This document shows positions 9,348 to 52,071 of a stretch of 64,000 bases of DNA, one piece after another (within the stretch, counting starts at the first letter, position 1; each line of letters starts with the position of its first letter). A program made the translations under genes and the position numbers. The notes under the pieces are model-generated. The model was not told where the DNA came from. It saw only the letters and a program-made list of their open reading frames with translations, and did no database searches. The DNA comes from a phage: the sequence record NC_102531.1; one strand, given 5' to 3'.

Positions 9348-9467
9348 TTAAAAGTTTAAGAAAAATTTTGCTACACCGTTGGCGCTACCCATCAACATTT
9401 GCGCCAGGATGTAACCAATGATGCAAACGATAATAGTTACCTTTGTGTGCTGGCGTGTAGTGCTCAT
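9348..9467 (-). CDS. Small membrane peptide (39 aa, MSTTRQHTKVTIIVCIIGYILAQMLMGSANGVAKFFLNF)
   Basis: Hand-translated codon by codon; AGGAGG Shine-Dalgarno 7 nt upstream. Confidence 0.35.
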   Translation of the reverse strand: MSTTRQHTKVTIIVCIIGYILAQMLMGSANGVAKFFLNF

Positions 9468-9542
9468 CTTTAAGCCTCCTTTTCCGCTTAATTGTGGTTA
9501 GTTTACTTTATTGATTGGAGTCAAGGCCATCTAAAAATAAAC

Positions 9543-9938
9543 TCAATAAGTTTTTAGTACTTTCCCGTCCAATCTGTCAAGCTGGATCTCGATAGCTGCA
9601 GAAAACCTATTGTAAACCACATCGCCCAAGGAGTCCAGCCAATCTATGACGTTATACACCTGCTCTTTATTCTTGCAAGTCCGGATCCGTTTCATTACGT
9701 AAGACGGATCAATATTAGTGCTCTCGTTGTTGTGGTCATGCGCCTGGCCTGCCGCATTAGTTATAGATTTTACAACCACCTGAAAAGGCTTTAAGGTGCC
9801 TTTTGCGTTCATCTCACGCGCTTTTGCGGCGCGGTTGTTATATGTTACACAACGGCGGCAAATGTTGACTAAATGCATGTCAATAATTTTTTCATCGTTT
9901 GCCAGTTCGTTCATGATGCGGCGTACGTTCTTATTCAT
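9543..9938 (-). CDS. Hypothetical protein (131 aa)
   Basis: ORF with AGGAAA Shine-Dalgarno. Confidence 0.5.
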   Translation of the reverse strand: MNKNVRRIMNELANDEKIIDMHLVNICRRCVTYNNRAAKAREMNAKGTLKPFQVVVKSITNAAGQAHDHNNESTNIDPSYVMKRIRTCKNKEQVYNVIDWLDSLGDVVYNRFSAAIEIQLDRLDGKVLKTY

Positions 9939-12254: not shown

Positions 12255-12454
12255 TTGTCGTCCCCTTTCTTACGAATATAGATGTGAGAGCCTGCCTGTA
12301 TATAAATTTCTCGACCATCCTCTGCAAAGATATGAAATACACGATCACCTTCGTACTCGATACGAGATATCTTCATAATGGTCTTTCCACCTGGGATACG
12401 GATCTCGTCTCCCACAGCGATGTTCCATGCAGATTTAAGCTTAAACATCTGCAC
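12251..12454 (-). CDS. Hypothetical protein (67 aa)
   Basis: ORF with 4-nt overlap to the downstream gene. Confidence 0.45.
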   Translation of the reverse strand: MQMFKLKSAWNIAVGDEIRIPGGKTIMKISRIEYEGDRVFHIFAEDGREIYIQAGSHIYIRKKGDDK

Positions 12455-12686
12455 CCTCCTTTGGGAACTTGAACTCTGGCATAGCCATATACGCTACAAC
12501 AGGGTTGTGATCAAAGTAGAACTGACCGTTAATTATCCCGGTTTTGTCCACATAGTTACCAGATCCTGCAAGAACAACCTCGCAAGCTCCGAAATCTACA
12601 TTGCCATCCTCATCAGCCATAGCTACAATATACTTTCCTAGGGGCATGTTTTTAACGCCGTCTACAAATGTCCACCCTTTGTTCAT
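12441..12686 (-). CDS. Hypothetical protein (81 aa)
   Basis: ORF. Confidence 0.45.
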   Translation of the reverse strand: MNKGWTFVDGVKNMPLGKYIVAMADEDGNVDFGACEVVLAGSGNYVDKTGIINGQFYFDHNPVVAYMAMPEFKFPKEGADV

Positions 12687-12706
12687 ACTTTATCTCCTGC
12701 ACTCTC

Positions 12707-13039
12707 TTAAGGTAACCAGTAAACAATCTCGCCTTTCAGCTTCATGTCGTTTCCAACATAAATTTCCCAGCCATCCATCTTAGCAACTGTAGGCCCAAAG
12801 TCATCCGCACCCCTTACCTCTTTCCAGGCTCCGTAGTCAGGTTGCCAGATATAGAATCCACCTTCTTTGTCCCATGCTCCGTACACTACGTTTAACAGGT
12901 TTCCCATTGCAACAATGGTGGGCCGTGGGAATAATACATCTACAGATGCGCCACAATTTCGGGTATCTTTTAAGTTGCAATCCCAAAAGATGTCTGCCAG
13001 TGTGGCGGCGATAGCTTTACGTCTTTCCAATGTTACCAT
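12707..13039 (-). CDS. Hypothetical protein (110 aa)
   Basis: ORF. Confidence 0.5.
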   Translation of the reverse strand: MVTLERRKAIAATLADIFWDCNLKDTRNCGASVDVLFPRPTIVAMGNLLNVVYGAWDKEGGFYIWQPDYGAWKEVRGADDFGPTVAKMDGWEIYVGNDMKLKGEIVYWLP

Positions 13040-17859: not shown

Positions 17860-18176
17860 GCTTCCTCGTCGTCTAAGGAGTTGAAGATTTCACCGAAGTA
17901 TTCTAAGACTTCTAGCTCCCGTGTGGTGCAGAAAACACAGTCACCGTTGTCATCCTCGATAACGGCCTCTTTACCCAGCACATCTACTTCAAGTTTATCG
18001 TTCAACAGGACAGCCCCTGTGTAAACTTTGTCGGCTGTGCAGTCCCGAAAAGCAGAGTCTTTCTCCAGATAGTCTGGCTTAACCTTGGCTTTAATTCGTT
18101 GATATTGTTTGGTCATTGCTGTGGTCCCCTTTCGTTTTGATAGGGCCATTATATTAGGCCCCATCACTGTTGTCAA
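17856..18176 (-). CDS. Hypothetical protein (106 aa)
   Basis: ORF with 4-nt overlap. Confidence 0.45.
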   Translation of the reverse strand: MTTVMGPNIMALSKRKGTTAMTKQYQRIKAKVKPDYLEKDSAFRDCTADKVYTGAVLLNDKLEVDVLGKEAVIEDDNGDCVFCTTRELEVLEYFGEIFNSLDDEEA

Positions 18177-33412: not shown

Positions 33413-33841
33413 TTAATCGTAGTGTGCCAAAATCTCTCCATCGTTGCAAGTTCCCTCTACAAAGTTATGAAGATTCATGCACTCATCTTGATAGAAGAAT
33501 TTACCGCTTTTCAGCCGTAGGCCAAACAACTCCGCATCTCCACGATGGCAAGCCTCTACAAGTTCATAGATTTCATACGGCAACTCTCCGTCGTCATGGA
33601 AGAATCCAGCCTTATCGTTGACATAAATGAAGAAATAATCACTGCTATCGCAAGCATCCAATATTTTAAACCAGATTTCATCTACATCTTTTTCTCGGAT
33701 ATCGATCACGCAAGTGGAGCTGCATTCGTACTCCTTCTCCGGCTCCTCGGTCAATACCACCAGGTAGTTTCCCCGCTTACCTACTTTAGCCATACAACCC
33801 CCCTTAAGCTTTAGCCAAAATGGCGCTAAACTCTTCACCAA
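33413..33841 (-). CDS. Hypothetical Cys-containing protein (142 aa)
   Basis: ORF. Confidence 0.45.
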   Translation of the reverse strand: MVKSLAPFWLKLKGGCMAKVGKRGNYLVVLTEEPEKEYECSSTCVIDIREKDVDEIWFKILDACDSSDYFFIYVNDKAGFFHDDGELPYEIYELVEACHRGDAELFGLRLKSGKFFYQDECMNLHNFVEGTCNDGEILAHYD

Positions 33842-34988
33842 ACTCTTTTACAATCTTCATCAGGTTTGGGTATGCTTTGATCAGCTGAGCAACAATCTTG
33901 TCACGCCCTTTACCGATAAGCAAGGCATTTCCTAAGGCATTAGGTTTCATCATCGCCATAAAGACTGAGAATACAAAATCTCGGTTCTCGTCCTTGAAGT
34001 TTTCCCAAAGGAAATCGAGGAAGTTTGCCACGCAGCTGACAAGATCTTCGTCTGAGATACTTGCATTTTCCATCATATTACGAATAGCGATACAACCTTC
34101 AGATCCAAGAATCCACAAAATGTCTGGCTGCTTAGGACCTACGTATTCTTTGCAGCCACCTGCCATAATCCGACCGATTTCCGGTAAATTGCGTTTCTTG
34201 GTGTGGTATGTCCAGATCTCTACCGCTGCAGTGTGACCAATAGCACCTTGCAGAAGAATACGGGACATAGCGTCAGAAATAATACCGCTGTCAAAATCGT
34301 GCAAGATGTCAGATGCAGCAACCCAAGATCGTGGTGTGGCAAAAGATGGACAATTAATCTCAGCCATAGCCTCATAATTATCAATAGCTGATGGAACTCT
34401 TTTCAGATACCCAATTACAGAGGAGTGAACCCCGTTGAGGAATGCGTAGTCCTCAATAAACACCTCTGCATTGCTTGTAACCTCTACAATGATAAAGCGG
34501 TTAGCCAGAGGGGCTTCGAGCGCCGAAAGAACCGCACCATCTGTAGAACGGTTACCCGCAGCCACAAAAACAGAACCCTTAGGGAATGCATAGGTGCCGC
34601 ACTTGTGGTCAAGCATAATTTGCATTGCAACCTTTTGCAGGTAGTTATCTGCATGAGTGAGCTCATCCAGAAAGATAATTCCGCTCCAGTCAGGATCCGC
34701 AGGCCAAAATTCTGGAATTGCAAACACTGTACGTGTAGTTCCATCCGCTTCTACAGGGATAGGTAGCCCAGATAAGTCGGCAGGATCTTTATCTGACAGT
34801 CGCACGTCAACAAGGTTGTCATCTCGCTCACCGAACATATTATCAGCGATCTGCTTCATCACCTGGCTTTTACCCACACCCATTGGTCCCAAAATTAGGA
34901 CAGATCGGCTATGACGTTGGGCAAACTGAATAATAGCTGGCAACTCACGGACAGTGATTTGACCACTTTCGAATACGTTTCTTGACAT
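33804..34988 (-). CDS. AAA+ ATPase, MoxR/CbbQ/CobS-like
   Basis: Walker A GPMGVGKS, Walker B IIFLDELTHA, AAA_5-like layout. Confidence 0.7.
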   Translation of the reverse strand: MSRNVFESGQITVRELPAIIQFAQRHSRSVLILGPMGVGKSQVMKQIADNMFGERDDNLVDVRLSDKDPADLSGLPIPVEADGTTRTVFAIPEFWPADPDWSGIIFLDELTHADNYLQKVAMQIMLDHKCGTYAFPKGSVFVAAGNRSTDGAVLSALEAPLANRFIIVEVTSNAEVFIEDYAFLNGVHSSVIGYLKRVPSAIDNYEAMAEINCPSFATPRSWVAASDILHDFDSGIISDAMSRILLQGAIGHTAAVEIWTYHTKKRNLPEIGRIMAGGCKEYVGPKQPDILWILGSEGCIAIRNMMENASISDEDLVSCVANFLDFLWENFKDENRDFVFSVFMAMMKPNALGNALLIGKGRDKIVAQLIKAYPNLMKIVKEFGEEFSAILAKA

Positions 34989-36311: not shown

Positions 36312-36590
36312 TTAGGCAATTGTCATTTTACATTCTTGAAATTTTAACACAAGACGGTGATTGTGTCTAGTGTCTAAAAAGATTTTTTCAACCATCAGGC
36401 ACACGGTATAACCGTCCATCTTGTTGACAACAAAATCTCCAGGATGAGGGAGGATGTCTCCCGGATTGGGGAAACATAGTCCACTCAGAAAGGCATCGTC
36501 AGTGGTGGACTTAATAGATTTCCACACACTGTCTGCCTGAACATGTTCGCCGACGTAATATACATTACCACATGCCTTCATCATAGTCAA
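36312..36590 (-). CDS. Hypothetical protein (92 aa)
   Basis: ORF. Confidence 0.45.
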   Translation of the reverse strand: MTMMKACGNVYYVGEHVQADSVWKSIKSTTDDAFLSGLCFPNPGDILPHPGDFVVNKMDGYTVCLMVEKIFLDTRHNHRLVLKFQECKMTIA

Positions 36591-37486
36591 ACCCTCGCAT
36601 AAATTAAACTTGTATCAGTATACTTCTTTAATGGGTAAATATCCTGTCCATAGATGCAATCATTAAACACCTCATCTACCCAAAGGCTACACTTATATCC
36701 CATCATTTCTAAAACACCCATCTCTTCTTCGGTAAACTTATCACCGCTCTTGCAAGATGTCAATACCTCATTCTGAACTCTTGCTACCTCGAAGCGGTTA
36801 TTGGCAATATCGCTATTGGCGATCAAATACTCACCTAGAGGGTGTGCGGCATTAAAGATGCACAGTGGACGGCTGACGTAATAGTCTCCGGGTGTATAAA
36901 AATTGTTGAGGTCTTTCACTAGAACATTCTTATCAGTCACTTCATTTATAACATCATGCATATCGCACATCTTTATATGTTTGAGGATTCCATCCCCCAT
37001 CACAAAATAAAAACTTGCTGAGACACTTTCGGCATAGATCTTACTAGATCCGTTGTAGTTGTATTTTACTCGGATGCTAACGGGGGTTTTTCCTGTCGCG
37101 TTAGCCATCATCCAAAGAAATGGCAGCTCATACTTCTCCTCTGAGGAAACAAAAGGTGAGGTAGCCAGAGATCGAAAACCTCCAGAGAAGTTGAAAGTTA
37201 CAGAACCGCTCCGGCGGTATGATACCGCGTATTCTACTTTTATATCGACGTACCCATTGGAATAGGTGTGTCCTTCATTATCTAAATATGTCCACTTATC
37301 AGACCCAGATACCAATCTACGCTCAATAACCTTCATCACTACAGGAATTAGTGGGTTGGTACAAACCGCTTTTGAAGTAGCTTTATCATCTAAAGCCTCG
37401 TAAATTGCAGAAAGGATGTCCCCAGCTGAAAGATTGGTTGTTATGTCCTGTTTCCACCGCGTACTAAAACTGTTAAGATTTGCCAT
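36587..37486 (-). CDS. Hypothetical protein (299 aa)
   Basis: ORF; first gene of the leftward block. Confidence 0.5.
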   Translation of the reverse strand: MANLNSFSTRWKQDITTNLSAGDILSAIYEALDDKATSKAVCTNPLIPVVMKVIERRLVSGSDKWTYLDNEGHTYSNGYVDIKVEYAVSYRRSGSVTFNFSGGFRSLATSPFVSSEEKYELPFLWMMANATGKTPVSIRVKYNYNGSSKIYAESVSASFYFVMGDGILKHIKMCDMHDVINEVTDKNVLVKDLNNFYTPGDYYVSRPLCIFNAAHPLGEYLIANSDIANNRFEVARVQNEVLTSCKSGDKFTEEEMGVLEMMGYKCSLWVDEVFNDCIYGQDIYPLKKYTDTSLIYARV

Positions 37487-37526
37487 AAGTAAGTGCTCCT
37501 ATGTTAGTTTTCTTTCGAATGGGTGC

Positions 37527-37555
37527 ACTATATTGTGGAGTTAGAGTAAAGTCAA
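37527..37555 (-). promoter_or_regulatory. Sigma70-like promoter in the divergent region (-35 TTGACT, 17-nt spacer, -10 TATAGT)
   Basis: Hexamers and spacing read directly. Confidence 0.45.
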
Positions 37556-37565
37556 CACGTTTTTG

Positions 37566-38606
37566 ATGTTGACATCTGTTGAGACAATTGATACGATTTC
37601 TTCACTTACAGAGCACGAGAGACGACTCATGAATCTTGAAAAATATTATACACCAGAAGAGTTAGAGCGCTTGCTCAAAAAATATAGACGCAAACAGAAT
37701 AACGCACGGAAACGAGATATAGAGTTCGACCTGTCATGGGAAGAATACCTCCTATTTGGTAAAAAACTTTTAGGAGATGGAGTATGCGACTATACCCTTA
37801 TACCTTTTGACATGCACACAGATGAAAACGGGCTGGGAAATCCTTTCTACCCATCTCTGGAGCGGATAGATGATGAAGGTCCTTATGCGGTTGATAACTG
37901 TTGTGTGGTGGGATTGAGATGCAACTCTCTAAAGGACTGTCTGGTAGATAAAAAGACTGCAGTCTTGATTAAAGACGAAACTGATCGAAAAATTGTCCAG
38001 CAGATGATGCTCCACCTGAGCGAAGAGCGTATGGAGAAATTGAAAGGTGATTATACTTTTGAAGATTTCATCTTGCAATATGGAACGGAAGAGGATAAAC
38101 TAGCACTCTTTGACGAAGAAGAGGAGGAAGATATGCTACCGATGTCTAAAGTTACTTATCGTGCACCCAAGAAGCACATTTCCGACATTGTAAACGAGCC
38201 TATCACAGAAGAGATTGAAGAAATGACGCAACAGGTGCATGAAGAGGAAAAAGAGACTCAGGAGGTCGAAGAGGAGCTTACAGAAGAGGTTCCTGCACTA
38301 CCTGATGATGTTGAGATTGCCAAAGCTTACACTTTCTATTGTCAAACGTTCTACGATGTAGGTATGAAAGTTGATCTGTCGTTCAGCCAATTTAAGAGTT
38401 CGTATATTCGCAAATGCTGTGCTTTAACTGGTGAACGTCTTGAAGCTGGACTTAAACCTCTGTTGGTGACCGACTGGAATAAAGGTTTCACTAAAGGAAA
38501 CTTTATGGTAGTATCTCCAATTATGGAGAAAGCTATGACAGATCTTATGAAGACCACCCGCATGACAATGACCGAGTTGGCAGGTATTTTCAAACACGTT
38601 AAATAA
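37566..38606 (+). CDS. Hypothetical protein (346 aa) with internal MSKVTYRA copy at residue 193 and an acidic central linker
   Basis: First gene of the plus-strand island; contains the right copy of the 29-bp inverted repeat in frame. Confidence 0.5.
   Translation: MLTSVETIDTISSLTEHERRLMNLEKYYTPEELERLLKKYRRKQNNARKRDIEFDLSWEEYLLFGKKLLGDGVCDYTLIPFDMHTDENGLGNPFYPSLERIDDEGPYAVDNCCVVGLRCNSLKDCLVDKKTAVLIKDETDRKIVQQMMLHLSEERMEKLKGDYTFEDFILQYGTEEDKLALFDEEEEEDMLPMSKVTYRAPKKHISDIVNEPITEEIEEMTQQVHEEEKETQEVEEELTEEVPALPDDVEIAKAYTFYCQTFYDVGMKVDLSFSQFKSSYIRKCCALTGERLEAGLKPLLVTDWNKGFTKGNFMVVSPIMEKAMTDLMKTTRMTMTELAGIFKHVK
38137..38165. repeat. 29-bp perfect inverted repeat, right copy
   Basis: taccgatgtctaaagttacttatcgtgca, reverse-complementary to 36275..36303. 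Confidence 0.85.
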
Positions 38607-38639
38607 TAACAGGGGCCAATGGCCCCTTCTGGAGTTTTA

Positions 38640-40100
38640 ATGGATAGCAGAAGTTCAGAAATCATTGCCTCGCAGAAAGATGATGCCCTGAGAATGTTGC
38701 AGGCTGCACGTATGTATCTCCTTGAAAAGCTGCCGTTCTATGGCACACTACTGTCAGGGTTGCAGTTCGTAGAAAACCACACATGGTGCTCCACCATGGC
38801 AACCGACCATAAACGCATCTATTACAGTCCTGAGTTCATTATGGGATTGGCTGATGAACGCAAGGCTATTCTTAAGGCTTCTCTAACTGACGAGCAGTTT
38901 GAGATGGCTGAAGTTTTCTATTCCCCAAAATCTGTGAAAGAGGTGGCCTTCCTTCTGTCACATGAGGTGGGGCATATTATCTGTGATCACCTAGTCCGTG
39001 GTAAAAGCTTTGAGCCGGAACTGTTCAATATTGCTTGTGATCACGTTATCAACACAGGCCTTGTGGTTGACTTTAGCAAACCTCCTTGTGTTTTCTTCCC
39101 GAAGGGGAAAAGCACTACGTTCGTGAAAGGTAAGCCTTTTGGCTTCTTAGCCAGCTGCTACTGCGACATGAAGTTTCATGGATGGATTGCTGAGAACGTT
39201 TATGCAGTTCTTGATAAGCAAAGAGATCAGAATAACGGTAAAAGTAAGAACGGTAAAGGTGAGAACTCTCAAAGTGATAAGCGACAAACCGATGATCACA
39301 TGAGTGGGAACGGTGGCACCAATGATAATCTTGGAAAGGCTATGGGGTATGATCAGCCACAACCTGTAATCAGCCAATCTGATAAAGATCAGGCCATGCA
39401 GGACTCTGGTGATATGCTGGAGGCAGCAATGCAAGCGTCCGGAGGCCGTTGCCCTGAGGCGGTGCGTGAGTTTGTCAAGAACAGAGGTAAACCTGTAATC
39501 AACTATATAGACATCATTAAGCAACGCATGTTGTCTAAAAGAAAGGCCGAACTGACCTACAGAAAACCTGGTCGCCGATCTGGGTCTTTGACCAGCACAA
39601 TGCGAAAAGTTGGGGCTATAAACAAGAACCAGCACGTTATTGTTCCTGGTCGTAATCCGGAAAACACTATAGATATTGTGGTGGCTTTAGACGTTTCTGG
39701 CTCGATCTCTCAAAGAACTTTAAAGAAAATGTTCAATGAAATCACCGGATTGTGCAATCTGTATAAAGAGTTTAAGGTTACAATGTTCTGTTGGTCAACT
39801 GAGGTTGGAGAGGTTAAAGTATACACTCGCGGCAACATAGACGAGATGATCAACTATGAGGTCCACTCAACATGGGGCACAACAGCTGCTTGCGTGTTCG
39901 AGTATCTGGATGCCAACATACCTAATGCAAAAGATGTCATCGTCCTGACCGACCTATACTTTGAGCATAACTTTGAACAAAAGGTTGTTGACAACAAGTG
40001 GAAAAAGTACGATACTCTATGGGTCCTCACTGAGGGGTATAATAAAAATTATATCCCGAGCTTTGGGAAAACTGTGGAATTAATCGAGTACGCTAAGTAA
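38640..40100 (+). CDS. vWA-domain protein with N-terminal HExxH metallopeptidase-like motif (CobT-like partner of the MoxR ATPase)
   Basis: LSHEVGHIICDH (HExxH) and MIDAS-like VVALDVSGS; start placed at the ATG after GGAG rather than the ATG inside hairpin 38611..38627. Confidence 0.65.
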   Translation: MDSRSSEIIASQKDDALRMLQAARMYLLEKLPFYGTLLSGLQFVENHTWCSTMATDHKRIYYSPEFIMGLADERKAILKASLTDEQFEMAEVFYSPKSVKEVAFLLSHEVGHIICDHLVRGKSFEPELFNIACDHVINTGLVVDFSKPPCVFFPKGKSTTFVKGKPFGFLASCYCDMKFHGWIAENVYAVLDKQRDQNNGKSKNGKGENSQSDKRQTDDHMSGNGGTNDNLGKAMGYDQPQPVISQSDKDQAMQDSGDMLEAAMQASGGRCPEAVREFVKNRGKPVINYIDIIKQRMLSKRKAELTYRKPGRRSGSLTSTMRKVGAINKNQHVIVPGRNPENTIDIVVALDVSGSISQRTLKKMFNEITGLCNLYKEFKVTMFCWSTEVGEVKVYTRGNIDEMINYEVHSTWGTTAACVFEYLDANIPNAKDVIVLTDLYFEHNFEQKVVDNKWKKYDTLWVLTEGYNKNYIPSFGKTVELIEYAK

Positions 40101-40115
40101 GAGAGGAGGTTATTT

Positions 40116-40379
40116 ATGGCAACAGAGTTAAAATTTGCATCAAACCGTAAAACTAAGAAGTATCTGTCCTCAGTAGCTCCAGGCACTGTGGTGATGTTTG
40201 TTGATGAACTTGGGGATGTGAATACAGCACTTGTTGTAAAATCACATCCTGCAAACATATATGTTGGGGTATTTGACCTGTTCAGAAAGGTGTTTGTAGA
40301 ACTACCTCACAGTTTGGTTGTTACAGAAATGGATGCCTGCATAGAAATTCTTGGCGAAGTTATGGTGGAGGAACAATAA
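40116..40379 (+). CDS. Small paralogous protein 1 of 4 (87 aa)
   Basis: Shares the layout KF-x-S, G-x-VV, Cys or His core, V-TE(L/M)D, I-ILGE with the next three genes. Confidence 0.5.
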   Translation: MATELKFASNRKTKKYLSSVAPGTVVMFVDELGDVNTALVVKSHPANIYVGVFDLFRKVFVELPHSLVVTEMDACIEILGEVMVEEQ

Positions 40380-40642
40380 TGGCTACCAGCATTGTATTCA
40401 ATTCTAAGGTGAAGAACAAAAAGCGTGCAGACAGCTTTCCGTGTGGGACCGTGGTAAGTTGCGACGGAGACGGCATTCAAAACATAGTTATGATTGTCAA
40501 AACAGGAGAACATTGTGTGTGGGGGTTCGATTTAGAAAATAATGAGTTGTACGATCTGCCACCAAACATGAAAGTTACAGAGCTTGACACCAAAATTACC
40601 ATCCTTGGAGAGACAAGCTATTCAAAAGAAGGAGGAGAATAA
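40379..40642 (+). CDS. Small paralogous protein 2 of 4 (87 aa)
   Basis: Tandem paralog, TAATG-type junction. Confidence 0.5.
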   Translation: MATSIVFNSKVKNKKRADSFPCGTVVSCDGDGIQNIVMIVKTGEHCVWGFDLENNELYDLPPNMKVTELDTKITILGETSYSKEGGE

Positions 40643-40905
40643 TGACCACAAAAATCACTATCGCAGAACCGAAAGCTAACACTCAACCTATCGAAAAGTT
40701 TAAGTGCGGTGAGGTGGTAACATTCACACCAGATAATGAAGATGCTAAGATTTTCGCAATGGTCACAGCTGAGTGGATGTGTGACAACACCACACAGGTT
40801 CTGCGTTTTGACACCTATCTTACCGATGAAATCAGGAACGACAAGATTGTGACTGGTGTGGATACTGAGATTGTTTTCTACAAGAGCTTTTTAGAGGGTT
40901 TCTGA
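40642..40905 (+). CDS. Small paralogous protein 3 of 4 (87 aa)
   Basis: Tandem paralog. Confidence 0.5.
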   Translation: MTTKITIAEPKANTQPIEKFKCGEVVTFTPDNEDAKIFAMVTAEWMCDNTTQVLRFDTYLTDEIRNDKIVTGVDTEIVFYKSFLEGF

Positions 40906-40906
40906 T

Positions 40907-41140
40907 ATGGCAAAAATTCGTAAATTATCTAGTAATCAGGTTGTGAAAGACTTTGAATCTGGAGAGATTCTTTATGTTCGTGATGCAGATGACGAAGGTG
41001 AAGATCTCGTTATGTTGGTGGGGCACGCTGAGGACGGATGCATCCAAGCTGTTTTTCTTGAAACAGCTATGGTGCACTGGATAGAGCTGGACCTGAAAGC
41101 ACGAAAACCTAAAGCAGAAATCCTGATTTACGAAGATTAA
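40907..41140 (+). CDS. Small paralogous protein 4 of 4 (77 aa, most diverged)
   Basis: Similar length and motif order. Confidence 0.45.
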   Translation: MAKIRKLSSNQVVKDFESGEILYVRDADDEGEDLVMLVGHAEDGCIQAVFLETAMVHWIELDLKARKPKAEILIYED

Positions 41141-41155
41141 TAAAAGGAGAGAGCC

Positions 41156-41605
41156 GTGTTGAGCAAACGTGAATGCGACAGCATTAGCCTGAATTCTTAT
41201 AAGAAACAATGGTTTGGGGTGGAAGTTTGCCGACTGCGGCTAGGCTCCTACCTGAACTTCGTTTATTATGAGAGCGACAGTCGTATCGTTTCTTATGAAG
41301 TGTTCTACACTAAGAACACATTCGAACTGCGCCGTAAAGTAGAGGGAGGGAGAACTACCGCCCAGAATAATTGGGAAACTATTCTGCCTCCAGATGTTAT
41401 AGGAAGCCCCCTGAATGTATCTGAAGATGAAAATCTTATGGTTCATGCTATGATGGGACTTGACAGCTTAGAGCTGGCGATCTATGATATGTCCATCGAA
41501 GCAGTTAAGCTGGACTACATCGAAAACACTTTAGAGGAAGGTATCAAGAAGTTTCTCAGTGAGAAATTAAAAGACCACTTTCATAAGGAGCTATATCTGT
41601 TATGA
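41156..41605 (+). CDS. Hypothetical protein (149 aa), GTG start
   Basis: AGGAGA Shine-Dalgarno 6 nt upstream of the GTG. Confidence 0.45.
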   Translation: MLSKRECDSISLNSYKKQWFGVEVCRLRLGSYLNFVYYESDSRIVSYEVFYTKNTFELRRKVEGGRTTAQNNWETILPPDVIGSPLNVSEDENLMVHAMMGLDSLELAIYDMSIEAVKLDYIENTLEEGIKKFLSEKLKDHFHKELYLL

Positions 41606-41847
41606 AGACCCGTAAAGAACGTAACAAAATTTTACCTGGAGCTCTCGAACACCTGATGAAGTGCAGATCTATTTGGCACTCTGCCAAGGAAGGGCAGAAG
41701 GTGGTTGTGGTTAGTGACAATGCCAACCCGTTTGGAGATTATACCACCATGATGGCCCCATATGTCCGTGATGGCGTTGTAGAAGTGGTCCCTTACAACG
41801 GTTTGCATGAACGGCACTTTGAAAGCACTTTGCTAGTGGAGCTATAG
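41602..41847 (+). CDS. Hypothetical protein (81 aa)
   Basis: ORF, ATGA overlap. Confidence 0.45.
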   Translation: MKTRKERNKILPGALEHLMKCRSIWHSAKEGQKVVVVSDNANPFGDYTTMMAPYVRDGVVEVVPYNGLHERHFESTLLVEL

Positions 41848-41849
41848 TC

Positions 41850-42416
41850 ATGGCGGTCAATGTGGCTTACAACACAGGAAAGCTTGACAGAGACATTGGG
41901 TGTCTTGTCCTTTCAGATACAGAAGAGTATTGGGGTTATGGGTTGCTGTCAGACCCACACCCGAGCAACCTTGTATCAACAGTGCTATACCGCTACGACC
42001 CTGTGCCAACGGTACACGACAAAGACATTCACGACCTTCGGATCAAGTGTCTGGAAGATCTGCTGAACAATGGTTGCAACGATCTGCAGGTAGCCAAGGA
42101 GAAGCTTACAAACATTCACAAAGAGGAAGTGATGAGTACCCTCAGTAAAAGATCAGTGCACAAAAAGATGATGCTGAACTTTGCAATGGGTATCTACATG
42201 GATGGGTATAAGGGAGGGGATCCGATCCTCAAGCTTCGCTGCCCGACACTGTGGGAAAGAGTGGTTGACAGTAAGGACGGTACTGCCCTGCTCGAACTCC
42301 ACACTGCAGGTTGGATTTGGCGGTATGTAGACGGATACCCTCTGTGGGCATGTGGACCTGGGGAATTTGTTGACAGACCTAGCGCGGTGGTGGACTTACT
42401 ATTGCAGTTTGAATAA
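41850..42416 (+). CDS. Hypothetical protein (188 aa)
   Basis: ORF. Confidence 0.5.
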   Translation: MAVNVAYNTGKLDRDIGCLVLSDTEEYWGYGLLSDPHPSNLVSTVLYRYDPVPTVHDKDIHDLRIKCLEDLLNNGCNDLQVAKEKLTNIHKEEVMSTLSKRSVHKKMMLNFAMGIYMDGYKGGDPILKLRCPTLWERVVDSKDGTALLELHTAGWIWRYVDGYPLWACGPGEFVDRPSAVVDLLLQFE

Positions 42417-42473
42417 AAAGGTGAGGTATAAGGTATTCATACACCTACCAACAATACAACAGGAGAGACTAAG

Positions 42474-42749
42474 ATGACGAAAGAAGAGGCCGACGTATTA
42501 GATTTTGCACTAGAGGCTACGCAGGAGGCTTTGGTGTTAGCTTGGAAAATGAACCAGCGTGCTGCAGAATGCAACCGCCGCATCAATGAGATCTTGGGCA
42601 TGTCTATGTATGATTTCACCATGCATGCCGGAGAGATTCCTGAATTAACTGCCGAGATGAATGATCTTGACGATAAAATTAATATCATTCTGAAGACAGC
42701 AGAAACAACTCACCAAACCGCCCGTAAATTTATCAACGAGAAGGTGTGA
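42474..42749 (+). CDS. Hypothetical protein (91 aa)
   Basis: ORF. Confidence 0.45.
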   Translation: MTKEEADVLDFALEATQEALVLAWKMNQRAAECNRRINEILGMSMYDFTMHAGEIPELTAEMNDLDDKINIILKTAETTHQTARKFINEKV

Positions 42750-43216
42750 ATATGGACTACAGCTACTGCGGGGAAGAAGTCCCTTTTAATTACAGCAATC
42801 TTACAACGAGCAATCCATATGAGACTCGCCACGGCACGCACATCATTGCCATCGACTTTGATGGAACGTTTAATGCGAGCCCTTTCATCTTCTCCCGCCT
42901 GATCAGGGATCTGAAGAAGGAGGGGTGGACAGTCTACCTTGTGACTTTCCGATTCATTACTCAAGACAATGTAGACATTGAGTATTGGCGCAAGGAGCTC
43001 GATGTTGGTGTGTTCTACACAGGTGGTGTTCAGAAGGCAGCCTACCTGGCGCAGTTTGATATCTACCCAGATATCTGGATTGATGATTCTCCGGCATGTA
43101 TTCCGGCTAAGAATCAGTTAGAGTTTGCAATGAAGGAGATTGAGTATAAGTCTGAGGCTAAGCGGAACGGATGGCCCTTTATTATTGAAGATTACCCAGA
43201 TCCTGAACCGGAGTAA
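42746..43216 (+). CDS. HAD-superfamily phosphatase-like protein (156 aa)
   Basis: Motif I IAIDFDGTF (DxDGT) and C-terminal IWIDDSP (DD). Confidence 0.45.
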   Translation: MNMDYSYCGEEVPFNYSNLTTSNPYETRHGTHIIAIDFDGTFNASPFIFSRLIRDLKKEGWTVYLVTFRFITQDNVDIEYWRKELDVGVFYTGGVQKAAYLAQFDIYPDIWIDDSPACIPAKNQLEFAMKEIEYKSEAKRNGWPFIIEDYPDPEPE

Positions 43217-43221
43217 GAGCC

Positions 43222-43392
43222 ATGAGGCGAAGATATCATTACCTGATGTGGAAGTTATATCAAAATGCTGCCAAAGCCTATCATACCATGTTTGGCAATG
43301 ACGATCACTACATCATGTTACATCTCACCGCTATTGAGCATCACAATGAGTGGATTCATGCAATCGTGGCAGGTGATAAAGACTTTAAGTAA
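43222..43392 (+). CDS. Small His-rich protein (56 aa)
   Basis: Hand-translated MRRRYHYLMW...GDKDFK; below the track cutoff. Confidence 0.3.
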   Translation: MRRRYHYLMWKLYQNAAKAYHTMFGNDDHYIMLHLTAIEHHNEWIHAIVAGDKDFK

Positions 43393-43442
43393 AGTATACC
43401 TCAAAAACGTATAGTGCGGCTTTCTAGACGGAGACTGATTAA

Positions 43443-43823
43443 ATGTGCAAGTGTAAATCCTATAATTGGAAAGTGAAAGGTGCCAAGCATCCAAATGTTA
43501 TCGTTGATGTGCCTAAAAATCTTCGTGACGGCAAAAAACGTGTGTGCCTTGATAAGTGTATGGCTAAGCCTATCATGAGTTTGTGGGCAGCAGGTTTGAA
43601 AACGCTAAACTGCTGCTGTGGTCATAACAAAGATATTCCAAGCATCATTATCCCAGAAGATGCAGATCCTAAAGCTTATGCCAAAATACTGACCCGCTAT
43701 CCCAGCACCTTCCTGATCGGAAAATGGTGTCACGATGAACTCCAATGGTGGATAGCCTATGGTAGTATAGGCACTACTTTTGGCTTCCCAGCTTTGTCAG
43801 AGCGCTATGTCAAAGTGTCATAA
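43443..43823 (+). CDS. Cys-rich hypothetical protein (126 aa)
   Basis: ORF with multiple Cys clusters. Confidence 0.45.
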   Translation: MCKCKSYNWKVKGAKHPNVIVDVPKNLRDGKKRVCLDKCMAKPIMSLWAAGLKTLNCCCGHNKDIPSIIIPEDADPKAYAKILTRYPSTFLIGKWCHDELQWWIAYGSIGTTFGFPALSERYVKVS

Positions 43824-43927
43824 TAGAATTTAAGGCCTCAAACGAGGCCTGTGCCTTCATAAATTTCCCCACCCTGTGCGATTGCCTTCCTGAATAAAAT
43901 ACCCTCTCAGATCTCTTAAAATTAAGC

Positions 43928-43956
43928 TTGACACCACCACCAGATCTATATATAAT
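43928..43956 (+). promoter_or_regulatory. Perfect-consensus sigma70 promoter (TTGACA, 17-nt spacer, TATAAT) inside the plus-strand island
   Basis: Both hexamers exact with 17-bp spacing; GAGGAG Shine-Dalgarno and ATG at 43985 follow. Confidence 0.65.
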
Positions 43957-43984
43957 TCTCACCAACCAAACAGAGGAGATCGTC

Positions 43985-44389
43985 ATGGATAATCTTGCAG
44001 ATGTAAATGTCGAAATTGTTAAACTAAAGTTCTTGGGCTTTCGAGACCATTCTTTAACAGCCATACTAATGGATACTCACTTCACACCAGGTAAAGAGTA
44101 CACTGCCTTCCGTTATATTTGCGGAGATCACGAATCAGCTTACAGTGTGAATACAAACCTCGGCGAGGGATATTTCATCAGAGATATCACAGATCACTTG
44201 TGGGGCATGTGGGAGTTGGTGGAGGAAGAGAATAAATCCCTTCCTAAAGAGATTTGGGTGCACACCTTCCACACAGGTAAGTTTGGAGGTACGGAACATA
44301 AGTCTATCCACTATGATGAAGAAAGTGCCATCAAACAACAAGCTGTGCTTGGTGGATCTATAGAAAAATTTGTTAAATGCGAGGACTGA
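43985..44389 (+). CDS. Hypothetical protein (134 aa; start moved to the ATG after GAGGAG)
   Basis: The track start at 43928 is the TTG of the promoter -35 hexamer. Confidence 0.5.
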   Translation: MDNLADVNVEIVKLKFLGFRDHSLTAILMDTHFTPGKEYTAFRYICGDHESAYSVNTNLGEGYFIRDITDHLWGMWELVEEENKSLPKEIWVHTFHTGKFGGTEHKSIHYDEESAIKQQAVLGGSIEKFVKCED

Positions 44390-44392
44390 GAA

Positions 44393-44593
44393 ATGGCTGA
44401 TTTTTGTAAAGATTGCTCTGAAGAGTTGTTTGGCTTTGACTGCAAAGATTTGGAAGGTCTGATCACTGAGGATCAGTGGAAGGAAGGCTATGCAGCACCT
44501 GTTATTTGTGAAGGTTGTGGCTATACCTATGTTGACCATAAAGGTAAGCGCGTCAAGCCGTCTGAAGATGGGGCATGTTGGGAGTATTACTAA
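44393..44593 (+). CDS. Zinc-ribbon-like small protein (66 aa)
   Basis: CxxC ... CxxC pairs (CKDC, CEGC). Confidence 0.45.
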   Translation: MADFCKDCSEELFGFDCKDLEGLITEDQWKEGYAAPVICEGCGYTYVDHKGKRVKPSEDGACWEYY

Positions 44594-44597
44594 CTAT

Positions 44598-44630
44598 AAA
44601 AAGAAAGGGGCCGTTTGGCCCCTTTTTATT
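44598..44630. terminator. Bidirectional intrinsic terminator between convergent blocks
   Basis: Stem GGGGCC gttt GGCCCC with T-runs on both strands. Confidence 0.65.
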
Positions 44631-44640
44631 TACCCCCTTG

Positions 44641-47600
44641 TTAACGAGAAAAGGTTGCGTAGGCTTCTAGACGATACTGCTGGTCACCAGGGAACATAAC
44701 ACCTATAGAGGCTGTCCCTAGAATCCTGCCTTCCTTTCCAGACTCCATTCTGAACCCTACCCATCCTGAACTCCTTGCAGCCTCGATGTTGTCGCTATAC
44801 CCGAAAGTGGCAAGATCGTCAACACCAGCCCCAAACAGCAACTGAAGCTGACTTCTCGGAAGCCCTATAATTTCAGGAATATACGCACCAAAGTACACCA
44901 TCTGCCCTACCTTAGGACCGCTGCCGTACTCCATCGGTTTGCTTGTAGAGAAAGTCTTCATACCAGAAGTACCTGCCGGATTAGGGTATGCCCCGTTTGT
45001 TGCTGTACCTATCCACATTCTCCACTGTGGTGCCATCTGTTTGACAGTAAAAGATGTTGAAGACGTTTTGCGCCCTGCATCATCTGTAACTACAAACTTT
45101 ATGGTGACATTCCCAGTAGCTTTAAATGTTACCAGTCCTGTGGTGGCATCCACTGTTGCAATGTTGGTATTACTACTTTCCCAAGTCTTTCTAATCCCGG
45201 ATACGTTGGAAGGGGTAATAGAAGGTTCCTGCATCTGCAGTTTACCCCCAACAATCCCTATGCCGTTGCCCGGATTATACAGCACACCAACCTCGTCTAT
45301 AATGTTCCCTGCTTTGAGACTATACTTCCTTGAGAAGTTGTAGGTTCCGTTATAAGTGTGTGTCCCCGAGAAGGTGACATCTGCCTTCCCGTAAGAGATG
45401 CAAACCAAAGCATACTTCCTGTCAGGCAACGTTTCTCCAGTCTCTGGGTGAGTTTTACCTACCTGGAACACACTCGGGTCAGTAGAGTCGTGACTATCAC
45501 TAACGGAGCTTGGACCGCCCATCAACTGTGACAAACAATTCCTTACCCATGTCCAGTTATTATCGCTGGAGAAGTCCACAGTCAAATCAAACACAACCCA
45601 CTCATTTGGCTTCCACACAGGTGTTGTAATGGACTTGCCTACACCACCTCCTTGGAGTGTTGCCGACTGTTCAGTGATCAGGGCCGCATAGGCCAGAGTT
45701 CCTAAACTCAAAGTCTGGCTTGCTGTCCTCACTACCTTAGAATCAGCATCTGTGAAGTTGTTGATGATCTGGAATGTGCCATAAGTGTTTTTACAGGTAA
45801 TTCTGGCGTTCAGCGTGTCAATCTTCCTCACATCTGCCATAGCAGTGTTAGACACAGAGAAGTCAGAAGCTTTAGCTGAGTTTGCCGCAACAGCAGGATC
45901 AACGTTAAGAGTTGCGTTGAACTGACAGGCAGGGGTAACCAGCAGCTTGTTATCACCTATTTGCTTCCATGAAATACTTTGGACAGGTAGATTCCATTTA
46001 ATACCTGAGAAAACTTTAGCAACCCTTGGCCCCAAAGCTCCAGTCCTGTTGTCTTTACAGCACATAGACATGGTGATCGTTGACGGAGTTGCTTGACCAA
46101 ATAATTGCTGTGCTTTTGCAGAGGACATAGTGTAGAAATTGTCCTTAACAAACTCATCAGCAGCTAAAGATCCATCAGCTCTCCACCACTGAACCTGGTA
46201 CCCTGTTTTGTCCCAACCACCGACCTGCTTCAAGTCCTCCCAGGAGATTTCTAGATCCCCAGTGGTAGGGTTGATTGCAGCAGTTCCCGGTGTTCCGGGT
46301 GACCACAATGGGATATCGAACCACGCTGGTTTAACAGATTGTACTGCGTTCGGTCCTATTGCAGCAGCAAGTTGCTGACCCATCAACACACGAGCATCTT
46401 TTACCAAGCCCCATTCAATCATGGACCCGGAGTAGCCTTCTTTCTTATAGGCCGAAGATCCGTTCAAATGGATAAGTCTGCTGCAGTCGAAACCATACGC
46501 CCCGCCACCGTTAGGATCTGCAAAGTTAGTTATGATTCTATCCCTTATATTTTTCCATGCCCTGCCTCCAATCTCATAGTCATGGTCATAACATCTCTGC
46601 AGCGTTGTCCAGCAAATGATTGCCATTCTTCTGCCACCAGTAAACCCGAAAGCGCCGTCATTCAACTCTTTCCACAGATAGCAGTTAGTTGCCCACATAG
46701 CTCTGTGGATATTGAACCAGTTTATAGACTTAGCAGAATTGTCCCACTGAGTTCCAGGTAATTCAGGCCACACCGCATTCACCAGCATATCCTCTGTGCC
46801 AGCATCGACCAGGAAGCCTCTTACCTTCCTACCCATCCCTTCTCTGTCTTTAGCAATCCAATTGCCAAACAGCCTCAGTTTTGGACCATAAACAACATCT
46901 TCAGGGTGCTCAAAAGAGACATACTTCAAGTATACCGTAGGATCACCGTAGGTGCCATCACAAACACTTTTATGCATGTTCTCACCCAGGTCTAGACGAA
47001 GTCCTGTCACCACTTTAGATGTGTCGGTGAATTTGTCTGTTAAATCAAATTCATACCACCACCATCCGCCACCAAGCATAAATTTCTTGCACCGCGCAGT
47101 GTCTGTATCTGATATTCTCTTATCCCCTGCAAAAGGTGAATCAGCAAACTGATAGTGCAGAGCAGTCTCAAATAGATGTGTTGAGGTTCCGTTTTCTGCA
47201 AGAACTTGCTTACCTATTAAGTCACACTTAATAATCATCACAACACGCTTGTAGCCGTTTGTTATCGGAACCTGCATAGATATGGATGTTCCGTCCATGT
47301 TCGATCTTAGTGCGGTCATGATGATGTAAGGATCAACAGCATTACCCAAAGTTTCAGGTCCTGGAATTATCTTGTACTTCTTGACCTGCCCCATGAATCT
47401 GTCACTGGCGTAAGTTGCAGCCTCGAAGCAAGACCCACCTCCAGGTAGTTCCCCCGGACCCCAGAAAAATGCGCCATAACAGTTATAAAACCATTTGTTA
47501 GGGTCATATTTATTCTTGAAGGTCTGAACCTCGTTGGCCTGTTTTGTCAAGAAAACCTGCGTGTCTGTGAAGATTGCAGGGTTTACTCTCGCCTGTCTTG

Positions 47601-50325: not shown

Positions 50326-52071
50326 TTAACGTTGTGCAATTACTACGTCTACGATATCACCAACACCACAATACGTTAATTGCAGCAAGGTAACACTGTT
50401 AGCCTTGTTGTTAATAACAGGTGTTGCCGACAGGATAGCATACTTATCGTGCAAAGTCACGTTGTGACCTACAGCATCCTGAATTACATAGATAACCGCA
50501 GTGAATGGATAAGGTTTATCTTCCGCTGATGTCCCAGGCCACTGTCCTATTGTAAAATCCCCTTTCGCGTGAACAACATACATACTGGCCTGCCCGTTAG
50601 GTGTCCATGTCCCACTGGACGCGTCAACCTCCTCTAAATCAAAATCTACCTTTCCTGCGTGGAAAGTAGGGGCAGTAATGGTTTTACCCGCCTCAATTTC
50701 TTGAGAGGTGGTTATCTTGCCACTGGAGTTAATGCCATTACAGACAAAGTTGACATTAGAGAAGTCAGGCAACCACCCAGTCACCGTGCCGGATATTTCA
50801 AGGTTGTGAACAGAGGTGGTGCCAGTCCCTGCTGCGTTTAAACTGACATCTCCATTTACCTGCAAGTTGCGGGTAACGTTGCAGTTTTCAGAGTTTGCAG
50901 TTGTTGCAGTTAAAGTGGTTGTTGTCAGCTCGGTAATTACACCTTTGTTGGCTGTAAGCCCTTCTCCTTCAAAAGTTGCACGCTCATTGACTCTTAAGGT
51001 ATTCAGAGCTATGTTTTGGATAGAGGCCGTACCTCGAATAACTACAGACCCGCCAACCTCCAAATCGCCATTTATCAATGCATCACCAGTGCTTTCAATA
51101 TAGCTAGGGTAGATCATGGTGCCATCGACAGAGTATGTTATCCCTGTAACGGTACCTGTCACCTCAAGGTTCTTAACCCTGGTGGTCCCATCTACCTGCA
51201 ATGTCGGTTCGGTTGCTGCCTTCATGGCATTACCACGAATGTACACGTAGTCAAAAAAGTTATTACCCAGGCCATCAAAATGCACATCGTTATTATTAGC
51301 CACTGGTTTCCCAGAAGTTATAGTGTCAGCTATAACCCTGTGGGTGGACACTTCATGAGGTTGCAGCTCTGTACTTCTCCAGTCTGCATGCTTAGGATCG
51401 CTCCACGCAAAAGTAAGTGTAGAAGTATTTGCCGTGAGGATTAGATTCCTAAAGCGTGCAGTAGAATCTGCCCCATTAACAGGTCCATGTAAGGTAAGGG
51501 TGCCACCAACTATAGTGTTAGCGAGTTCTGTAAGACCTTTTACCACCAAAGACCCTACAGTAACTTTCATCCCCTCCATGGCTTTAAATATGCTATCAAC
51601 ATAGTCAACAACAAACTCTGTGTTTGCTATGGACTCTGACTTATCGTCCATTGGAGGTGTAGGTACTCGTGGGTCACCTTCGAACCTCGGGCTGTTAAGT
51701 TTTGCGTAGTATTTTGCCATTACTGCAGAGTCGGTGTATAATCTCCAGTTTGGAGATTGTGAAGGATCTGCTGGCATTCTAACCGGGTTAGATTTTGATG
51801 CTGCGGGAGCGTACCACCATTGAGGGCCTGTGTCCCCTTTAAACTCATACAGCTGGTTAAAAACTGTTGTGGATGCACCATACGCCCAAGGGATCGGTGG
51901 CGTTTTAAAATAAAGGTTGTCAAGCATGGCTTTTCGTACCGTAGGGATGGTGGTCCCATCCTCTACGACAACTTCATCCACAGCGTTACCGTTGACAACC
52001 AAGTGCAAACGTTCAGAATCAACAATTACTTGATCTACCGCCTGCTCAAAGCTTGTCATGTCTTGCGCCAT
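50326..52071 (-). CDS. Tail fibre or spike protein (581 aa), putative
   Basis: Thr/Gly/Asn-rich repetitive beta-helix-like sequence. Confidence 0.55.
   Translation of the reverse strand: MAQDMTSFEQAVDQVIVDSERLHLVVNGNAVDEVVVEDGTTIPTVRKAMLDNLYFKTPPIPWAYGASTTVFNQLYEFKGDTGPQWWYAPAASKSNPVRMPADPSQSPNWRLYTDSAVMAKYYAKLNSPRFEGDPRVPTPPMDDKSESIANTEFVVDYVDSIFKAMEGMKVTVGSLVVKGLTELANTIVGGTLTLHGPVNGADSTARFRNLILTANTSTLTFAWSDPKHADWRSTELQPHEVSTHRVIADTITSGKPVANNNDVHFDGLGNNFFDYVYIRGNAMKAATEPTLQVDGTTRVKNLEVTGTVTGITYSVDGTMIYPSYIESTGDALINGDLEVGGSVVIRGTASIQNIALNTLRVNERATFEGEGLTANKGVITELTTTTLTATTANSENCNVTRNLQVNGDVSLNAAGTGTTSVHNLEISGTVTGWLPDFSNVNFVCNGINSSGKITTSQEIEAGKTITAPTFHAGKVDFDLEEVDASSGTWTPNGQASMYVVHAKGDFTIGQWPGTSAEDKPYPFTAVIYVIQDAVGHNVTLHDKYAILSATPVINNKANSVTLLQLTYCGVGDIVDVVIAQR

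Follow-up and report, generated by a model that had tools for sequence, protein, structure and literature searches.

The rightward-oriented block of genes at positions 37,487 to 44,640 of the 64,000-nucleotide phage sequence analysed here (record NC_102531.1; the whole stretch is referred to as the window) is, by sequence comparison, orthologous and syntenic with the unit 'genes 11–26' of phage rV5, which was proposed as a transcription unit with the same boundaries in 2013 (Kropinski et al., 2013, Virol J 10:76, PMC3606486). The overall explanation that we favour, and consider quite probable, is that the block (genes g1 to g15, from left to right) is the Vequintavirus counterpart of this rV5 unit, that it carries dispensable accessory genes and that g2 encodes a probable partner of a MoxR-type ATPase. 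The 2013 work on rV5 described this unit with its promoters, terminator and switch in GC skew, and dispensability was measured in a close relative in 2025, so these parts are already known. The co-depletion of the g2 orthologue with MoxR on a clinical host strain, visible in a supplementary table only, is the sole lead beyond the literature.

Results

The block corresponds to genes 11–26 of rV5

Megablast with positions 37000–45000 retrieves 121 phage records, nearly all of them Escherichia phages of the genus Vequintavirus (rV5-like); 107 of the matches have at least 80% query coverage at at least 90% identity. The closest record to the window is JLBYU08 (99.7% nucleotide identity). Sixteen GenBank records (MG0656xx) named 'Campylobacter phage' (host C. 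jejuni) are 97–99% identical over the block and the DNA polymerase gene, and their host label looks doubtful. The open reading frames (ORFs) tile 37.5–44.6 kb on the plus strand, confirming the first-pass annotation of a contiguous plus-strand block between minus-strand blocks, and the 37–45 kb bins are the only ones across the window with a positive GC skew. That annotation had counted seventeen genes; there are 15, as in phage Murica (15 coding sequences, genes 11–25). The JLBYU08 annotation has 16 coding sequences, solely because g11 is split by a frameshift there.

For rV5, four transcriptional units have been proposed, one of which comprises genes '11–26' (Kropinski et al., 2013). In tblastn searches against rV5 (GenBank DQ832317) all 15 block proteins match ORFs 11–26 in order, 13 of them with 88–100% identity, and identity falls to ~40% at the g3/g4 slot; rV5 covers 93% of the block at the nucleotide level. 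Gene order, the rightward promoter P11, the bidirectional terminator and the switch points of the GC skew are alike in the two phages. The differences are that rV5 has a single allele at the g3/g4 slot, ~40% identical, where the window has two paralogs; that g2, intact in the window, is broken into ORF12/13 in the original record of rV5; and that the promoter ahead of ORF25 is unannotated in rV5 and a perfect consensus in the window. The split g2 of the original rV5 record and the frameshift-split g11 of JLBYU08 represent either errors in the sequencing or dispensable genes that have become pseudogenes and are tolerated as such.

The block orthologues of Bas54 are dispensable on E. coli K-12

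In the HIDEN-SEQ preprint (10.1101/2025.11.20.689424), phage Bas54 (MaxBurger) was mutagenized with transposons to saturation. Bas54 (our locus L007) shares ~94% nucleotide identity with the window over the block, and the orthologues are bas54_0042–0056. Most block proteins are 84–100% identical in the two phages, the lowest values being those of g12 (84%) and g15 (89%). Bas54 differs in having a single-copy allele at g3/g4, two other genes (330 bp and 189 bp) where the window has g14, and another −10 box in the internal promoter.

On E. coli K-12, 14 of the 15 block orthologues of Bas54 are classed as non-essential and the remaining one, bas54_0043, as 'reduced fitness' (10.1101/2025.11.20.689424, supplement file 9). 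MoxR, rIIA and rIIB are non-essential on this host as well, and in MoxR, the vWA gene (orthologue of g2) and the g7 orthologue 91–94% of the TA sites are disrupted (same source). The first-pass annotation had called the content of the block accessory-like, a reading that holds up, mostly through these published data. It had also pointed to comparison with related phages, asking whether the block is universal, syntenic and essential: it is conserved and syntenic throughout, but not essential.

The preprint further identifies bas54_0063 (MoxR) as one of two genes required against DS-28, a predicted defence system of the clinical strain CFE311 (10.1101/2025.11.20.689424). In its comparison of K-12 and CFE311, MoxR has a log2 fold change of −7.23 (adjusted p 0). 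In the same comparison the vWA/metallopeptidase gene bas54_0055 (g2 orthologue) is depleted with a log2 fold change of −2.20 (adjusted p 0.009); the values are −2.28 (adjusted p 0.195) for bas54_0051, the g7 orthologue, and −1.32 (adjusted p 0.68) for bas54_0052, the g6 orthologue. The 12 remaining block genes stay within ±0.5 and are not significant. The data cover one clinical strain only, the supplement sheet Data S6 (labelled CFE303) being the same TRANSIT run as Data S7 (CFE311); a CFE303 table is seemingly missing from supplement file 9. By orthology, both the non-essentiality calls and the anti-DS-28 phenotype of MoxR should transfer to the phage of the window.

g2 is the probable partner of a MoxR-type ATPase

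The product of g2 (38640..40100, plus strand, the ORF being open from 38619) is a fusion of a zincin metallopeptidase (HEVGH) and a vWA domain (DVSGS MIDAS motif). Pfam recognizes both DUF2201_N (98.7 bits, cut-off 23.2) and DUF2201 (42.7 bits, cut-off 26.4), and orthologues in Mydovirus and Seunavirus have 43–46% identity. An AAA+ ATPase gene lies outside the block on the leftward arm (33804..34988, minus strand); its name, MoxR, is taken from the annotations of JLBYU08, rV5 and Bas54 by other groups.

A MoxR-like ATPase is found in 812 phage records and the vWA gene in 624, with parallel taxon counts. In phiTE and UPEC06 the MoxR gene directly precedes the vWA gene and has the same orientation; N4-like and jumbo phages (Paride, CB4, V13) have the two genes 1–3 kb apart on one strand, and the ATPase gene of N4 and the vWA gene of G7C occupy similar positions in their respective genomes. 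The fusion of DUF2201_N with DUF2201, and an AAA+ partner in the same phages, are features that the Vequintavirus pair has in common with the jumbo and N4-like pair (Iyer et al., 2021, PMC7824862); in contrast to that pair, the two Vequintavirus genes are on opposite strands and flank the divergent promoters. The probable role of g2 is that of vWA cofactor, and possibly protease, to the MoxR-type ATPase, whose gene lies ~2.5 kb left of these promoters, and from the CFE311 depletion we infer a coupling of g2 to DS-28. A candidate universal third partner of MoxR and vWA, g7, was rejected, since its family is confined to Vequintavirinae.

A subfamily-conserved head and genus-specific small genes

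A DNA polymerase control query retrieves 120 records compared with 121 for the block, which places the block in practically all members of the genus sequenced so far. Its head reaches beyond the genus. Mydovirus (phage Mydo) and Seunavirus (phage KE22) have the same divergent junction, and their rightward block, which runs for >13 kb, opens with orthologues of g1 and g2 and has an orthologue of g11 further on. g1, g2, g7 and g11 are present in Mydovirus and/or Seunavirus, and g2 also in phiTE and UPEC06; the other block genes are found in none of these. In Vequintavirus the g3–g6 array between g2 and g7 looks like a genus-specific insertion. As judged from this distribution of homologues, the block is made up of two layers, namely a head conserved across the subfamily (g1 and g2 with g7, and g11) and small genus-specific genes with two polymorphic slots. 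In both Mydo (9418–9825 of locus L004) and KE22 (12409–12813 of locus L009) the stop codon of the vWA gene is overlapped by a gene labelled 'tail protein'; homology of this gene to g7 is confirmed by tblastn in KE22, and the Mydo gene did not score.

Boundaries of the unit

The left boundary is a pair of back-to-back promoters. The first-pass annotation had given the divergent region as 79 bp; the real intergenic region is 37487..37628 (142 bp), because g1 starts at 37629 and the rightward promoter falls between two ATG codons. In an alignment of five genus members ATG 37629 is invariant, whereas the ATG at 37566, the earlier start of gene 1, is AGG in FV3. The leftward promoter, predicted to serve gene 10 onward, is of the sigma-70 type (37527..37555, minus strand, TTGACT-17-TATAGT); both hexamers are conserved in five relatives and an AGGAG Shine-Dalgarno sequence precedes the ATG at 37486 on the minus strand. 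The rightward promoter (37569..37597, plus strand, TTGACA-17-TACGAT with a TG extension) corresponds to P11, which the GenBank entry of rV5 annotates at the equivalent place, and is invariant in four of five relatives, the −10 box being TAAGAT in FV3. The −35 boxes constitute an inverted repeat with 13 bp between them, and the region as a whole is 98% conserved across five phages.

At the right boundary a bidirectional intrinsic terminator (44597..44632, both strands) is common to the block and the convergent tail-fibre gene. Its hairpin (44604..44625) is preceded by an A-run and followed by a T-run, and its folding energy is −19.6 kcal/mol (z = −4.2) for the plus strand and −18.7 kcal/mol (z = −3.7) for the minus strand. 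The bidirectional terminator of the first-pass annotation is thus supported by a terminator-like fold with A- and T-runs on both strands. The rV5 record also annotates a terminator on both strands; the stem is invariant in five relatives and the loop is inverted in FV3.

Two further hairpins lie inside the block. The one between g1 and g2 (38611..38627, plus strand) is GC-rich with an interrupted U-tract and a z of only −1.3, and is annotated as a terminator in Murica. It shares a GGGGCC...GGCCCC stem with the terminal terminator (38602..38628 and 44598..44624; repeat family D2) and may be an attenuator or leaky terminator that sets the g1:g2 expression ratio. The other hairpin (43833..43850, plus strand, −13.9 kcal/mol, z = −3.5, without a U-tract) is just past the stop codon of g13 at the start of a variable slot; its stem is conserved in five relatives and its loop differs in FV3. 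In FV3, the loops of both this hairpin (AAAC to TTTT) and the terminal one at 44604..44625 (GTTT to AAAC) are altered with the stems intact, a pattern consistent with selection on structure and not on sequence. A search of Rfam gave no RNA family across the whole window.

Polymorphic slots and the internal promoter

Most block proteins are 91–100% identical within the genus, and polymorphism is found at two places, g3/g4 and g14. The g3/g4 slot is dimorphic, with g3 and g4 together in 43 records and a single gene, ~40% identical to both, in 74. At the g14 slot, 85 records have g14 at at least 90% identity and ~30 have the N-terminal module alone at ~50% identity; Bas54 and FV3 hold different or extra genes there, including a gene of 330 bp. 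Both slots are candidates for host-specific functions. g14 itself (43985..44389, plus strand) encodes a two-module protein. Its C-terminal 45 residues (90–134) recur at 42–57% identity in T1-like siphoviruses (Jk06 and Rogue1, 'putative fusion protein') and in podoviruses, and this segment looks like a small shuffled module.

The slot is preceded by a sigma-70 consensus promoter (43928..43956, plus strand), for which the first-pass annotation had correctly read TTGACA-17-TATAAT (12 of 12 matches). The promoter is followed by GAGGAG and the ATG at 43985 (18–29 nt past the promoter) and lies in the largest non-coding gap of the block (161 bp). It is not exceptional: the window has 10 sites with at most one mismatch from TTGACA-N17-TATAAT, where 0.49 are expected by chance (20-fold enrichment), and nine of the ten are on the local coding strand. 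A second perfect TTGACA-17-TATAAT is located at 18148..18176 (minus strand) in the leftward replication block. A one-mismatch site at 51714..51742 (plus strand) is on the non-coding strand, inside the tail-fibre region. The −10 box of the internal promoter is TATAAT in the window and Murica, TATAGT in JLBYU08, TAGGAT in rV5 and TG-n-TATTCT in Bas54 and FV3, ranging from 6/6 to 4/6 matches with a variable TG extension, whereas the −35 box TTGACA and its distance to the post-g13 hairpin are kept in all five relatives. This pattern, a fixed hairpin and −35 box with a changing −10 box, argues for a maintained promoter before an exchangeable gene, an arrangement that is moron-like.

A moron is a promoter–gene–terminator unit between conserved genes, as in lambdoid phages. 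The g14 slot resembles such units in having its own predicted promoter, a downstream terminator and allelic replacement among close relatives. Unlike them, it occurs in virulent phages and not in prophages, its terminator is common with the conserved g15 and the tail-fibre operon, and none of the relatives examined has an empty slot.

Two other rV5 elements were considered. The counterpart of 'P20' in the window reads TTGACA-21 nt-TACTAT and was rejected as a promoter on account of the spacer length. The late-gene motif of rV5, TGGTAAAATA, has a single one-mismatch site, inside g1, and is uninformative on timing.

Other genes of the block and its flanks

The first-pass description of the gene products is accurate as regards the vWA and HExxH motifs of g2, the paralogs g3 and g4, the HAD motifs of g11, the Cys-rich g13 and the two CxxC pairs of g15. 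g1 (37629..38606, plus strand), the orthologue of rV5 gp11 and annotated as 'anti-sigma factor', is Srd-like. It matches PHROG 3118 (E = 9e-113), PHROG 4592 'decoy of host sigma70' (3e-15) and PHROG 1400 'Srd' (2e-10), its orthologues in Mydovirus and Seunavirus have 39–40% identity, and searches for a Pfam model and a PDB relative gave none. rV5 gp11 had been assigned to Srd by PSI-BLAST (Kropinski et al., 2013). The resemblance to T4 Srd is a profile-level homology to the Srd PHROG families; g1 differs in being longer, with two Srd/HNH-like halves, the second of which follows an acidic linker. Srd of T4 is regarded as a decoy of host sigma70 and was later reported to stimulate RNase E. The profile matches make g1 a plausible candidate for host takeover, and its Bas54 orthologue has no phenotype on K-12 or CFE311.

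g3, g4 and g5 (40116..40905, plus strand) form a tandem array of three 87-residue paralogs. g3 and g4 are 37% identical (E = 2e-11), and g5, which aligns with the g3/g4 profile over 76 columns (hhalign E = 2.5e-5), is probably a remote paralog. A fourth paralog, g6 (40907..41140, plus strand, 77 residues, PHROG 12046 of unknown function), is unsupported (hhalign probability 0.9%). g7 (41156..41605, plus strand) encodes a protein of 149 residues that is restricted to Vequintavirinae and whose PHROG family is labelled 'tail protein'. g8 (41602–41847), g9 (41850–42416) and g10 (42474–42749), all on the plus strand, encode genus-specific proteins that fall into PHROGs of unknown function; they are 91–99% identical within the genus and have no homologue in the other genera examined.

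g11 (42746..43216, plus strand) is a small putative HAD-type phosphatase with DxDxT, T, K and DD motifs. D37, D39, T41, T67, K97, D113 and D114 are invariant in five homologues, down to 61% identity, and orthologues in Mydovirus and Seunavirus have 44–48% identity; sequence searches of Pfam, NCBIfam and the PDB gave no match. The AlphaFold (AF2) model (predicted local distance difference test, pLDDT, 61) has alternating β and α elements, and Foldseek gave no significant match to it in the PDB (no E value better than 0.02). g12 (43222–43392, plus strand) encodes 56 residues and g13 (43443–43823, plus strand) a Cys-rich protein of 126 residues (CKC...DKC...CCCGH), whose AF2 model (pLDDT 58) is too poor for structure searches. 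Searches of large databases with g11 and g13 returned close, unannotated relatives only. The last gene, g15 (44393..44593, plus strand), encodes 66 residues with two CxxC pairs in a zinc-ribbon-like pattern (PHROG 2210). It has ~70% nucleotide identity to many Felixounavirus records, which make up most of 271 weak matches, an unusually high conservation of DNA between unrelated myovirus groups. The remaining block proteins belong to PHROGs of unknown function. PDB sequence searches with g1, g2, g11 and g13 gave nothing usable, and NCBIfam gave noise only for all 15 proteins and five leftward neighbours.

To the left of the block, the JLBYU08 annotation lists leftward small early genes and genes for SSB, DNA polymerase, primase, methylases, helicase, rIIA/rIIB, the ATPase annotated as MoxR and a so-called fucosyltransferase. 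The last of these, 'alpha 1-3 fucosyltransferase' (36587..37486, minus strand), has no Pfam match and a sole PHROG match, of unknown function; the name, which goes back to a weak similarity in the rV5 record of 2013, probably lacks foundation. To the right lies the leftward lateral tail-fibre gene (1878 residues, Ig-like). In the deletion near the 44.6-kb boundary in Bas51/Bas54 (Aionostat study), distal block genes would be lost as well if the fibre gene concerned is the intimin-domain one.

Discussion

The arrangement suggests that host sigma-70 RNA polymerase would fire both ways from the promoter pair early in infection. The leftward transcript would express MoxR, rIIAB and the replication genes in parallel with the block, and the rightward transcript would run from g1 to g15 and end at the terminator in common with the convergent tail-fibre operon. 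The weak hairpin after g1 and the internal promoter before g14–g15 may tune relative expression along the unit. Its products would be non-structural, dispensable accessory proteins, with g1 as a candidate for Srd-type takeover and g2 working with MoxR, and for this pair the data favour counter-defence over assembly. As to the 'host-takeover or anti-defence' role of the first-pass annotation, takeover is plausible for g1 as a member of the Srd family, and the indication for anti-defence is indirect and concerns g2 alone, through its depletion on CFE311.

The same annotation had framed the block as an 'island' or 'cassette'. Horizontal acquisition of a genomic island or mobile cassette that carries genes for host takeover and anti-defence and entered the leftward genome in opposite orientation would fit the strand of the block, the many small ORFans, the two polymorphic slots and the sharing of g15 and the g14 C-terminal module with unrelated phage groups. 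The GC content of the block (0.40–0.47) is, however, the same as that of its flanks, and searches of the block gave neither direct nor inverted repeats at its flanks, nor any integrase, transposase or other mobility gene. The block is found genus-wide, its syntenic head genes and junction are kept in Seunavirus and Mydovirus with a longer rightward block, the strand flip is that of one of four transcription units, and moron-like behaviour is limited to the g14 slot; the framing is not borne out and acquisition as an island is scarcely credible. We also hold it very unlikely that the block, or g2 with MoxR, is a morphogenesis module in which a MoxR–vWA chaperone with a fused protease processes or assembles virion proteins. 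Iyer et al. (2021, PMC7824862) proposed such a virion-assembly chaperone with a processing protease for the same pair of MoxR and metallopeptidase–vWA in jumbo phages of group 2.2, a role in tail development has been shown in the archaeal virus ATV, and the block adjoins the lateral tail-fibre operon and includes g7 with its 'tail protein' label. The dispensability of the pair on K-12 nevertheless argues against an obligatory role in assembly, and the non-essentiality in Bas54 of MoxR, the vWA gene and the g7 orthologue is at odds with what was proposed for the jumbo phages. Mass spectrometry of rV5 virions listed no product of genes 11–26 (PMC3606486), MoxR is needed solely when a specific defence system is present, and the N4-like pair sits among early or replication genes, not structural ones.

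Within the unit itself, the internal promoter could be no boundary at all, with the rightward promoter driving the block as a single operon and the 12/12 match being a lineage-specific accident. The perfect −10 box is limited to the Murica lineage, the rV5 authors annotated no promoter there, and the upstream hairpin lacks a U-tract, so that read-through is likely. Yet the −35 box and hairpin spacing are kept even in Bas54 and FV3, two phages with a different surrounding spacer, another gene downstream and a −10 box of the TG-extended type; near-consensus promoters are strongly enriched and almost confined to the coding strand; and the gap is the largest in the block. A single operon is on balance rather unlikely. 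It is a tentative extension of the favoured explanation, possible but doubtful, that g2 (possibly with g7), as the partner that engages or cleaves the substrate, forms with MoxR a counter-defence machine that disables DS-28, and that g3/g4 and g14 are further host-specific counter-defence loci under diversifying exchange.

Several points weigh against the explanation of the block as a dispensable accessory unit with g2 as partner of MoxR. The assignment of g1 to Srd is one of profile similarity only, and the ATPase scores below the gathering threshold of all Pfam AAA families (16.7 bits for AAA_5, where 22 are required). Sigma-70-like promoters occur genome-wide, hence their presence alone is no proof of early expression, and a literature search for Vequintavirinae transcriptomes found none, so that promoter use, timing and termination are read from the sequence. 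Essentiality was measured in a relative with different g3/g4 and g14 alleles. The depletion of the vWA gene is ~4.6-fold compared with the complete loss of MoxR, was neither reported nor followed up by the authors, and could reflect a property of CFE311 other than DS-28.

Virulent phages with the pair of MoxR and protease–vWA number in the hundreds (Vequintavirinae, N4-like and jumbo phages), and the pair has so far been read as an assembly chaperone; the evidence from a close relative points instead to overcoming host defence. Vequintavirus, with two deletable genes on either side of a single promoter pair, would be a convenient system in which to settle the role of the pair. Determinants of host range or anti-defence in phages that are being developed for therapy and biocontrol might reasonably be sought in the two polymorphic slots.

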